From: Planctomycetota bacterium
Lineage (GTDB): Bacteria; Planctomycetota; UBA1135; UBA2386
NCBI GenBank assembly: GCA_965223545.1
Contig: OZ245006.1
Span: 6,400,001-6,464,000 of the forward strand
Length of the DNA stretch: 64,000 nucleotides
Reading direction: 5' to 3'
Every line of letters begins with the position of its first letter. Positions within the stretch are counted from its first letter, which is position 1. Positions 21,986-24,451 of the stretch are shown one piece after another. Below the pieces are notes generated by a model. It was not told the DNA's origin and did not search any database. It worked only from the letters and a program-made list of their open reading frames with translations. Made by a program: the position numbers and the translations under genes.

Positions 21986-22185
21986 CTCAGCGCGGCCGAG
22001 GCCGCAACCAACTCGGAGCATTCCGCGACCCGAGCGTCGGTCGCGGGTCCCGCGGTCGCCGGCGGCCGCCCTGAGCCCAGAGGCCAGTGTTGTCTTCGAG
22101 CCTCCGGGAGCTGCGTTGTCGAAGTTCCAGCGACATCGAGCCTTCCGAAAGGTTGTCGCCGCGCGAAGATTTGCGGACCCTGAGG
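21986..22185. repeat. Degenerate copy (200 bp) of the 195-bp palindromic repeat
   Basis: Starts CTCAGCGCGGCCGAGGCCGCAAC and shares CTGAGCC, GAGCCTCCGG and GTTGTCG blocks with 37271-37859. Confidence 0.75.
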
Positions 22186-22234
22186 CTCAGCGCGGCCGAG
22201 GCCGCAACGGTATGTGTGGTTCCATGATCTGCGA

Positions 22235-22565
22235 AGCTAGAGTTCTCCACACCCGTCGCGCCGTAGCGGTGTGGAAGACTCGCGCGATGGTGCAGCCGCA
22301 GGAGTCGTGTCGGGAGTCTGGTCATCGGCCGCAAGAGAGCTTAGGGTCCCCCGGCGTGCGACGGAGAGGTTTCGCGATCTGCCGCAATGGTGGCGCTTCG
22401 AGCGGCCCCTCATTTGGTTCTGCGACTCTCCTCCCGCGTGGGGGACCCGATTTAGGAGATTGGCGGCGTGAGAAATCACGGCCCCGAAACACGAACCGTT
22501 TTGGCGACTCGCCTCCTCAGGCGGACTGCGCGGGTAGGGAGAGTCCTCTCGTCGACACTCACTCG
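22235..22565 (+). ncRNA. Candidate bridge RNA (ends approximate)
   Basis: Nested stems including GGGTCCCCC 22344-22352 / GGGGGACCC 22440-22448. Loop segments match target left (22381-22388), target right (22413-22419), donor left (22452-22460) and donor right (22489-22499). Confidence 0.82.
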
Positions 22566-22582
22566 TTGAACATGGAGGGGAC

Positions 22583-24085
22583 ATGAATCGATTCGTTGGA
22601 TTGGATCTCGGCTTGAGGAGCAAGCACCGAGCCGTCGTTCTGGATGGTGCGAAGTCTCGGGGCAGACCGTTTTCAGTCGAGAACAGCCGTGAGGGTATTG
22701 ACCTTCTGCTGCGCCGTGCACAGGAAGGTGCCGAGGGTCCGGTGAGCTTCGTGATGGAACCAACGGGGTTGGCGTGGCTGCCCATCGCGGCGCACGTGAA
22801 CGCCGCAGGGTTCCAGATCTACGTGAGCAAACCACAGAAGCTGAGCGACCTGCGGAAGTTCTATAGCAAGCACACCAAAACCGACGTAGTAGACGCCGAG
22901 GCCGCTGCGCGTCTGCCGCAGATGGATCCAAAGGGCGTCCACCAGCTGCGTGTTCCAACTGCCGACGAGACGACGATCCGTCGACTCGTGAAGCGGCGTG
23001 AGCGGTTGGCGCGCGAGCTCAGCGACCACAAGCGTCGTGTGCACGCGATACTGGTACTGGCGAATCCCAGCCTCATGAAGGCCTTGGGGGCAGAGAAGTT
23101 CAGTGCCGCTAAGATGGGGTTTCTGCGGCGCTACGTCGATCCGGTGAAAGCGGTCGGCCTTGGGAAGAGTCGCTTGGAGCGCTTCTTGACGAAGCGATCC
23201 AAGGGAACGCATGACCCGTGCTTGGTCGACCGCGTGCTCGAGTCCTGCCGACAGGCCGCCGAGTACTACGCTGAGCTGCGAGCTGCGGGGCAGATGCCGT
23301 TCGACTACGAGGCCATCCAAGAGGATGTGGTGTACGAGCTGGATGAGATCGAGCGCAAGAACACGGACGTTCGCAAGCTCGACGCAAAGATCAAGAAGCT
23401 CTACCTGGGCGTCGATCCTGACCGAACACTCGAGCAACTGCGCGGCGTCGGTCCCACGATCGCTGCGGCCATCGAAGCCTTGGTAGGCGACATCGCGCGG
23501 TTCTCGAACGGCAAGAAGTTCGTGAGCTACTGCGGACTGTGTCCACGCCGGAAGCAGACGGGCATGAGCGACCCCTCGATGCCAATCACCAAAACCGGCC
23601 AACGAGTACTCAAGAAGTACCTCTACCTAGCAGCTGACGTCGCTCGCCAGTGGGATCCGGATTTCGCGGCGTACTACGCTCGCCGCTACGCCGCAGGTGA
23701 TCACCACAACCTCATCCTCATCGCATTGGCTGGCAAGATGGCGCGCCGCGTCTACGCCCTCCTGAAGCGTCGCGACAGCCAGCGCGCCGATGACAAGCCG
23801 GCGTCGACGCAAGTCCGCTACGTCCTGCGAGACGCCGACGGCAACGAGCTCACGAAGGTTGCCGCGCGCGCGCTCATCGCAGCCAAGTTCACGCGCAGCA
23901 TCGTCGCGCCACAGCGGCATGAGCGCGACCAACGGCGACAGGGACGAGTGGGGACTCCGACGACGAGGGACTTGAGTGGCCGCCCAATGGACGCCACAGG
24001 CCTGGCCGTGGAATCCCCACGTCAACCTCACCCGATCGGTGATCTCATGCAAGAACACTTCCCTGGTCTTGTGGAAGAGTCCTGA
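22583..24085 (+). CDS. IS110-family recombinase/transposase (DEDD RuvC-like plus Tnp20 domain), 500 aa
   Basis: GLD8, ME59PTG, KTD101VVD104A, LRGVGP and GLCPRRKQTG motifs. RBS GGAGGGG upstream. Confidence 0.95.
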   Translation: MNRFVGLDLGLRSKHRAVVLDGAKSRGRPFSVENSREGIDLLLRRAQEGAEGPVSFVMEPTGLAWLPIAAHVNAAGFQIYVSKPQKLSDLRKFYSKHTKTDVVDAEAAARLPQMDPKGVHQLRVPTADETTIRRLVKRRERLARELSDHKRRVHAILVLANPSLMKALGAEKFSAAKMGFLRRYVDPVKAVGLGKSRLERFLTKRSKGTHDPCLVDRVLESCRQAAEYYAELRAAGQMPFDYEAIQEDVVYELDEIERKNTDVRKLDAKIKKLYLGVDPDRTLEQLRGVGPTIAAAIEALVGDIARFSNGKKFVSYCGLCPRRKQTGMSDPSMPITKTGQRVLKKYLYLAADVARQWDPDFAAYYARRYAAGDHHNLILIALAGKMARRVYALLKRRDSQRADDKPASTQVRYVLRDADGNELTKVAARALIAAKFTRSIVAPQRHERDQRRQGRVGTPTTRDLSGRPMDATGLAVESPRQPHPIGDLMQEHFPGLVEES

Positions 24086-24127
24086 ACAAGCCGTGCACAC
24101 GCGATGTCGAGCCCCAGCGAAAACCCC

Positions 24128-24133
24128 TTGACA
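24128..24133 (+). promoter_or_regulatory. -35 hexamer in the IS right end (half of the circle-junction promoter)
   Basis: Perfect TTGACA. In the circle it lies 17 nt before TATGTG (22211-22216). Confidence 0.7.
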
Positions 24134-24325
24134 TGACTTAGGAGATATCAAACACGGATGCCGCTCTTGCCGGAGCGGCTTGGAAGGTCCGACCCATCCG
24201 CCGCCGCGCTGAGCCCGGAGGCACTGTCTCTCGGAGCCTCCGGCGCGGCGGCGACGTTGCCATGTCGGCGGCGTCGCCTCGAGAATGTTGTCGAAGCTCG
24301 ACGGTTCGAGGCGCCGGAGGCTCAC

Positions 24326-24451
24326 TCAGCCTTCGGTTGGTCGGCGCACCTGACGCAGCGCGTACCAGCAGACCAGGTAGACGGCGCCGAGCGGCCGCCC
24401 GATGCGCCGCGCGATCCAGCGGACGTAGCGTTCGAGCGGCAATCGCCTCAC
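24326..24451 (-). CDS. 41-aa small basic/hydrophobic protein (MRRLPLERYVRWIARRIGRPLGAVYLVCWYALRQVRRPTEG)
   Basis: GTG start overlaps the upstream TGA (GTGA). GGAGG RBS lies 7 nt upstream. Too short for the supplied ORF track. Confidence 0.6.
   Translation of the reverse strand: MRRLPLERYVRWIARRIGRPLGAVYLVCWYALRQVRRPTEG

Follow-up and report, generated by a model that had tools for sequence, protein, structure and literature searches.

The window, a stretch of 64,000 nucleotides from contig OZ245006.1 of a Planctomycetota bacterium, carries an IS110 element in which the target core (AC) and the donor core (AT) differ at 11/11 genomic copies, the dinucleotide not being shared as it is in IS621; the best-studied members of the family depend on such a match. 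The region upstream of the recombinase gene is the guide-RNA (bridge RNA) left end of this element. Judged by its sequence features, the element works like an IS621-type bridge system and departs from it in the shared core. We consider it probable that this is an IS110 element with the ordinary four guides in an enlarged bridge RNA, from a clade that has lost the shared core and completes its reaction in a top-strand manner, all parts taken jointly. The unlike cores are a stronger and less expected result than the dedicated excision guide proposed earlier for this region, which would have been striking had it held, but does not hold. Workers on IS110 disagree on whether these elements recombine by Holliday-junction exchange at a shared core or by copy transposition that transfers the top strand only, and a recently expanded element with naturally differing cores makes this mechanistic question directly testable. 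Moreover, if true, unlike cores would lift the matching-core rule used in the choice of sites for bridge editing.

Element, recombinase and genomic copies

The element extends over positions 22209-24148 (+) of the window (1940 bp) and is found in 11 copies in the genome, identical in protein and DNA (0 differences). These bounds follow from the junctions and from the reading of the empty sites: all 11 left junctions show GCCGCAAC followed by GGTATG, all 11 right junctions show GAGATAT followed by CAAA, and the empty site GCCGCA-AC-CAAA has 95 genomic copies. The left end of 374 nt holds the bridge RNA and the right end measures 63 nt. As read from the junctions, insertion joins the left target and AC to the left tip of the element, and the right end and AT to the right target. 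A one-base core C was considered and rejected; the empty site that it predicts occurs once, against 95 occurrences of the site with two C. The features of the region are the following.

21986-22208 (+), dispersed genomic repeat of ~200 bp serving as target, with left target GGCCGCA (22200-22206) and target core AC (22207-22208)
22209-22217 (+), right donor arm GGTAT..., the left tip of the element; GGTAT opens the left end in most close homologues
22240-22281 (+), 5' stem-loop of the bridge RNA, kept in closer homologues and different in the L001 group
22290-22346 (+), linker and 5' strand of the outer helix, with two similar sub-repeats as candidate registers
22327-22334 (+), second GGCCGCAA, not conserved and probably there by chance, its CCGC partly explained as a stem strand
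22344-22448 (+), target-binding arm with long base stem
22381-22387 (+), left target guide GCCGCAA, followed by a conserved TGG (22388-22390); the zone tracks the cognate target
22413-22419 (+), right target guide TTTG with core-reading GT and T
22433-22441 (+), segment b, with two mutually exclusive partners, the 5' strand of the target arm and the 3' tail (22526-22534)
22452-22460 (+), left donor guide TTAGGAGAT, matching 24138-24146 and ending short of the donor core
22489-22500 (+), right donor guide ACACGAACC with core-reading GT and T, containing ACCGTT; direct reading against 22206-22217
22505-22534 (+), 3' strands of the outer helix, with tail c (22526-22534)
22543-22582 (+), pyrimidine stretch (22543-22550) predicted to be able to pair with the ribosome-binding site (22575-22582)
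22583-24085 (+), IS110 recombinase reading frame, 500 aa, with D8, E59, D101 and D104, and Thr326 at the place of IS621 Ser241
24128-24148 (+), right end, with TTGACA (24128-24133), left donor arm (24138-24146) and donor core AT (24147-24148)

The recombinase combines PF01548 (DEDD RuvC-like, 1.9e-24) with PF02371 (Transposase_20, 4e-21), its DEDD residues are intact, and its solved structural relatives are ISCro4 and IS621 only. Thr326 (23558-23560) aligns with Ser241 of IS621. Serine and threonine interchange often at this position in the clade: threonine stands there in 22/76 loci and in 45/103 proteins including the query, serine in 58. Since the element is present in 11 identical copies, the threonine probably serves as nucleophile in place of the catalytic serine. 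The recombinase was not found in the genomes of relatives (60 and 400 genomes searched); a plasmid search gave only matches of ~30% identity, and viral scans gave four motif loci without recombinase match and two weak protein matches. Four further loci of the same genome (G000 C1 615170, 5086472, 6850307 and 7064540) show weak tblastn matches to the Tnp domain (34% over 70 aa) and probably represent another multicopy element.

The 11 copies are inserted in the dispersed ~200-bp repeat or in sites resembling it. The repeat family (21986-22208 and 24149-24330 in the window) is both tandem and dispersed, with well over 100 related genomic stretches, and two of its sub-types flank the insertion at 22209-24148. 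Two repeat copies, at 537464 (-) and 611325 (+) of G000 C1, hold a five-base remnant GGTAT between the left target with core and the right target. These remnants may possibly be excision scars, as if an element had been lost between the TAT of the left tip and the TAT of the right end.

In the circle junction as reconstructed, TTGACA is followed by 17 nt and then by a -10 box with a 3/6 match, a predicted promoter. The circle joint was not found in the contigs of 4 of 24 listed runs, an absence that proves nothing, and the donor sequence used here is therefore a reconstruction; no sequence variants within the element were seen in the contigs of the same 4 runs. Among the 25 longest of 264 listed pairs, none is an inverted repeat that joins the two tips. 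The IS1111 arrangement, an RNA in the right end and subterminal inverted repeats of 7-17 bp, does not apply, the guides sitting in the left end.

Guides and fold of the left end

For comparison, 88 homologous loci were fetched and 24 with a recognisable left end were chosen. Alignment A1 holds 19 of the 24 ends and the window, five identical or near-identical ends having been dropped and L035 moved to alignment A2, which comprises 12 long-type ends. In a cognate-target test on the 17 homologues whose left junction is complete (all but L081 and L033), the left-guide zone matched its own target over 6.12 nt against 3.70 nt for shuffled partners, and 0/2000 shuffles scored as high. In 16/16 elements having both ends, 4-6 of the 6 positions of the right target guide are complementary to the right target. 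The left donor guide has a 9-nt match to the element end, and the right donor guide pairs with its end at 7 Watson-Crick positions and one wobble position out of 9; covariation of the donor guides is weak because donor ends vary little. Three features of an IS621-type bridge RNA are thus present, namely a long left non-coding end, target-loop guides covarying with the target, and donor guides complementary to both ends. The original prediction of an IS110 bridge RNA longer than the 177-nt RNA of IS621 is borne out. Length alone is not special, as left ends of 272-378 nt are usual in this wider group. An Rfam scan of the region gave 0 matches. Among members of the clade (window 22381-22390 compared with L009, L011, L012 and L019) the left target guide extends 0, 1 or 2 bases into the core, so that its position with respect to the cut varies among the ends compared.

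The fold had been described as a structured region of ~330 nt, with a 5' hairpin, a 9-bp stem closing the target loop and two long-range helices that place the target arm and the donor guides in one multiloop. The hairpin (22246-22253/22268-22275) and the 9-bp stem (22344-22352/22440-22448) are present. The ~330 nt measure a span of DNA, and folding beyond chance is not found: the 326-nt strand folds at z = -1.11, with 9/100 shuffles as good, and since the region folds no better than shuffles, pairs read from the single sequence are no evidence. The unconstrained minimum-energy fold was discarded, since the guides are buried in it and shuffled sequences fold equally well. The strings of the long-range helices are there (GTGTCG 22307-22312, first given as ~22306, CGACAC 22553-22558, GAGTC 22314-22318, GACTC 22506-22510), but they do not covary: 52.6% of cells are paired against 51.6% after shuffling, with 222/500 shuffles as high, the GAGTC/GACTC half of this test being weakened by columns that are mostly gaps in the homologues. 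GAGTC and GACTC each occur three times in the region.

Another helix does covary, so that an enclosing helix stands even though those originally named do not. It joins the linker just 5' of the target arm to the stretch just 3' of the donor loop, and is found in 9/20 aligned ends, those that possess the 3' stretch. Its cognate duplex test gave 19/5000 permutations, and the whole nested model reached 86.1% paired against 80.9% (0/500 shuffles; slid controls 30-49%), statistics that both ignore kinship. At least 5.7 expected pairs of the outer helix were obtained in 7/8 long-type homologues and in 0/11 short-type ones. Together with the target arm and the donor loop it is predicted to form a three-way junction, with the donor guides still closed by a short stem of their own (93.8% paired, with little covariation). 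In the window, the ensemble values are -136.5 for the homologous register, -139.6 for the pairs originally proposed and -147.9 for a shifted outer helix (22290-22312/22505-22531). Nesting of both arms in this element, where IS621-type RNAs have side-by-side arms, is likely on these models, because all three candidate registers enclose both arms. Diverse bridge folds, including donor guides in multi-loops, have already been reported in the accessible text of PMC11208160 and 10.64898/2026.10.21.760802, and it is the accessible text of the publications cited here to which all statements on published systems refer.

Unlike cores and alternative explanations

Empty-type sites carry AC in 106/116 cases and AT in 0. 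Within the clade, the cores are identical in 3/16 members having both ends, and several members differ at both core bases, with GG, CC, GC or TG against AT. An automatic motif rule was run on 87 loci, of which 41 lacked an end or a motif and were passed over, and 5 were removed as duplicates. By this rule the cores are identical in 24/26 distant relatives against 2/15 loci of the GGTAT class; one of these two, L060, is probably a mis-picked distant locus. The core dinucleotide of the two right guides (GT, CT or AT) is the same in both loops in 19/19 ends. The base of this dinucleotide next to the cut forms a Watson-Crick pair with the target core in 19/19, whereas against the donor core it is Watson-Crick in 4, wobble in 8 and mismatched in 4 of 16 members. 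A tree of 27 rows shows several changes of the guide dinucleotide, in both loops together, and has unlike cores in both main branches.

Both right guides therefore read the target core, and the donor guide fits the integrated left junction. ACCGTT (22495-22500) had been proposed to read this junction as part of a special guide; the fit is real, and the special role falls away, since ACCGTT is the right donor guide with its core and handshake positions. According to PMC11208158, once the top strands have been exchanged in IS621, its right donor guide base-pairs with the core and handshake bases that come in with the target, and single-strand excision has been described for the same element (10.64898/2026.08.31.748434). 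In the mechanism that we favour, the recombinase would, like that of IS621, cut the top strands on the 3' side of the core, and the right donor guide would form its core pairs only once exchange has taken place, an extended handshake that would account for the fit of ACCGTT to the integrated left junction. Completion would probably proceed by top-strand transfer with replication or repair and not by bottom-strand exchange across a homologous core, because the cores need not match. Excision would use the same four guides, and the outer helix would enclose both arms in part of the clade. Several points weigh against this explanation: the donor sequence is a reconstruction; the ends of homologues come from single metagenome contigs and were located by motif and not by empty sites, a weakness eased by the pairing of the right target guides in 16/16; 3/16 members of the clade do have identical cores; and the members are related and non-independent.

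Both cores of this element begin with A, and the single mismatch that remains could be passed by Holliday-type exchange and mismatch repair. An ordinary Holliday-junction bridge recombination that works as in IS621, tolerates a core mismatch and leaves it to later repair or replication is nevertheless unlikely in our judgement. The domains and the DEDD residues are those of IS621, wobble lets GT read AC and AT alike, and the few members with matched cores agree with it; but the left-derived core is kept on both sides in 11/11 copies, the members differing at both core bases and the frank guide mismatches at the donor core are left to be explained, and the left donor guide ends before the core. 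Far less probable still is the proposal that 22327-22334 and 22495-22500 form a guide pair dedicated to excision, bound to the integrated left junction. The two strings do exist and adjoin each other on the junction, and the second copy matches over 8 nt, against 7 nt for the true left target guide. The best constrained fold places this copy within the multiloop, its predicted opening cost is only 2.9 kcal/mol, and it could be a recent private gain, given that DNA context is available only for relatives of at most 56% protein identity. Conservation of 22327-22334, on which the original prediction had made the guide depend, is clearly absent: 0/19 homologues carry their own target at the aligned columns, the copy is in or beside a 19-nt window-only insertion (in it in alignment A2), and L009, whose target and right guide are those of the window element, lacks it, its best match being 6 nt in the 5' hairpin. 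Nor does the copy covary with the target. The zone 5' of the target arm matches the cognate target over 5.18 nt against 4.84 nt when shuffled (223/2000 shuffles as high), and the copy lacks the TGG scaffold of the true guide. By prediction it is also partly paired, even in the fold first proposed, where 22328-22330 have an unpaired probability of 0.02-0.04 and two A's are open. An 8-nt match to the 12-nt left target arises in 5.5% of 3000 shuffles of the window's left end, and in 16.8% if any of the four junction arms on either strand is counted. Four of the 17 homologues (L001, L023, L025 and L028) have target matches of 7-8 nt upstream of the target arm, a point against the unlike-core explanation; these lie at other places, and the matching words are largely common to relatives having other targets. 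Furthermore, a dedicated excision guide is unneeded, because IS621 excises with the same four guides as it integrates (PMC13626964) and does so independently of target pairing (10.64898/2026.08.31.748434). The second GGCCGCAA is thus probably incidental. Its origin by tandem duplication of the linker was tried as well and found weak (201/5000 shuffles, chosen post hoc).

A further reading, compatible with the unlike-core explanation, takes the extra length to be regulatory, the segment b switch coupling guide folding or processing to exposure of the ribosome-binding site of the recombinase; we regard this as a serious possibility, while leaning against it. The exclusive a-b and b-c helices both covary (each 0/5000 cognate permutations), and the b-c helix is 92.2% paired (0/500 shuffles). 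It reaches at least 5 expected pairs in 8/11 short-type ends and is predicted to vanish on cutting the tail. Structured 5' leaders inhibit translation in ISPpu9, and loop-only RNAs, target-only or donor-only, exist in CazIS110-1. On the other hand, pairing of the pyrimidine stretch with the ribosome-binding site shows no covariation (860/5000), b-c is predicted to be disfavoured in the window element (ensemble -136.4 against -147.9), and for the control pairs a-c and a-e just 2 and 3 of 5000 permutations in the short group were as high, from which the covariation test must be taken as inflated by relatedness. On these models segment b may reasonably be read as a switch, or as part of two alternative stems that would close loop-only RNAs. 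The unlike-core explanation can be widened to a core-free clade of bridge recombinases, in which the core positions of the donor loop would act as a target-programmed handshake, transfer would be top-strand-only, serine and threonine would interchange as nucleophile, and the RNA would nest both arms and contain a fold switch controlling its own processing or recombinase translation. As a whole, this wider proposal is put forward tentatively, with the balance close to even and slightly unfavourable.

Relation to known systems

With IS621 and IS622 (ISCro4) the element shares the DEDD and Tnp domains, a long left end with a 5' stem-loop, a target loop and then a donor loop, left guides that match the top strand and right guides complementary to it, a right end with a -35 box, a dispersed repeat as insertion site, and junctions of the kind that a cut of the top strand on the 3' side of the dinucleotide would leave. 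It differs from them in the size of the recombinase (500 aa against 328-341) and of the left end (374 nt against a 177-nt RNA), and in the covarying outer helix of part of the clade. Moreover, the cores differ here, whereas IS621 has a shared CT, an identical dinucleotide being read there by both loops on both strands, and IS622 designs, as described, filter for matching cores; the left donor guide omits the core, and threonine takes the place of Ser241. CazIS110-1 (10.1101/2025.10.25.684509) is likewise a multicopy IS110 element, for which copy-out, top-strand-only transfer and target-only and donor-only RNAs have been reported; its RNA differs in being ~170 nt long with two loops, and the main text of that report does not use the word core. 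The IS1111-group bridge/seekRNAs (ISPa11, ISEc11) and ISEc21 offer another comparison: many IS1111 RNAs reportedly have donor guides in a multi-loop (PMC11208160), and PMC11187229 argues for insertion 'without duplication'. IS1111 RNAs are, however, mostly located downstream of the gene, with long subterminal repeats and a reversed order of guides, and PMC11187229, in its accessible text, counts as part of the element a duplication that does exist, whereas in the present case the dinucleotides are truly different. ISPpu9 resembles the element in a long structured leader limiting recombinase translation and differs in a shared AG core and in the antisense RNAs Asr9/Ssr9.

The comparison also took in the accessible text of 10.1101/2025.05.14.653916, 10.64898/2026.03.19.712850, PMC12288879 and PMC13604230. 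In the literature searched we found no description of naturally unlike or absent cores, nor of a threonine nucleophile, although unexamined figures, supplements and subscription papers may hold one. A nested or switching bridge-RNA fold was not found described there either; Fig. 6d of PMC11208160 and Fig. S12 of a 2026 preprint, for example, may show one or another of these features. Mining pipelines take a shared core as the basis for rebuilding sites and drop those elements for which no firm boundaries are obtained, as stated in the accessible part of 10.64898/2026.10.21.760802; because a shared core is assumed in this way, a clade with unlike cores may have been passed over.

Two further observations concern the right ends of homologues. 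In L086 and L087 these break off after TTAGG into unrelated sequence, perhaps owing to a second insertion into the donor arm. In L016, L020, L024-L028, L030-L033 and L001, a right end containing AGGAGA stands directly before CATG or CGTG, and these homologues seem to insert just ahead of start codons, supplying a ribosome-binding site to the gene downstream.
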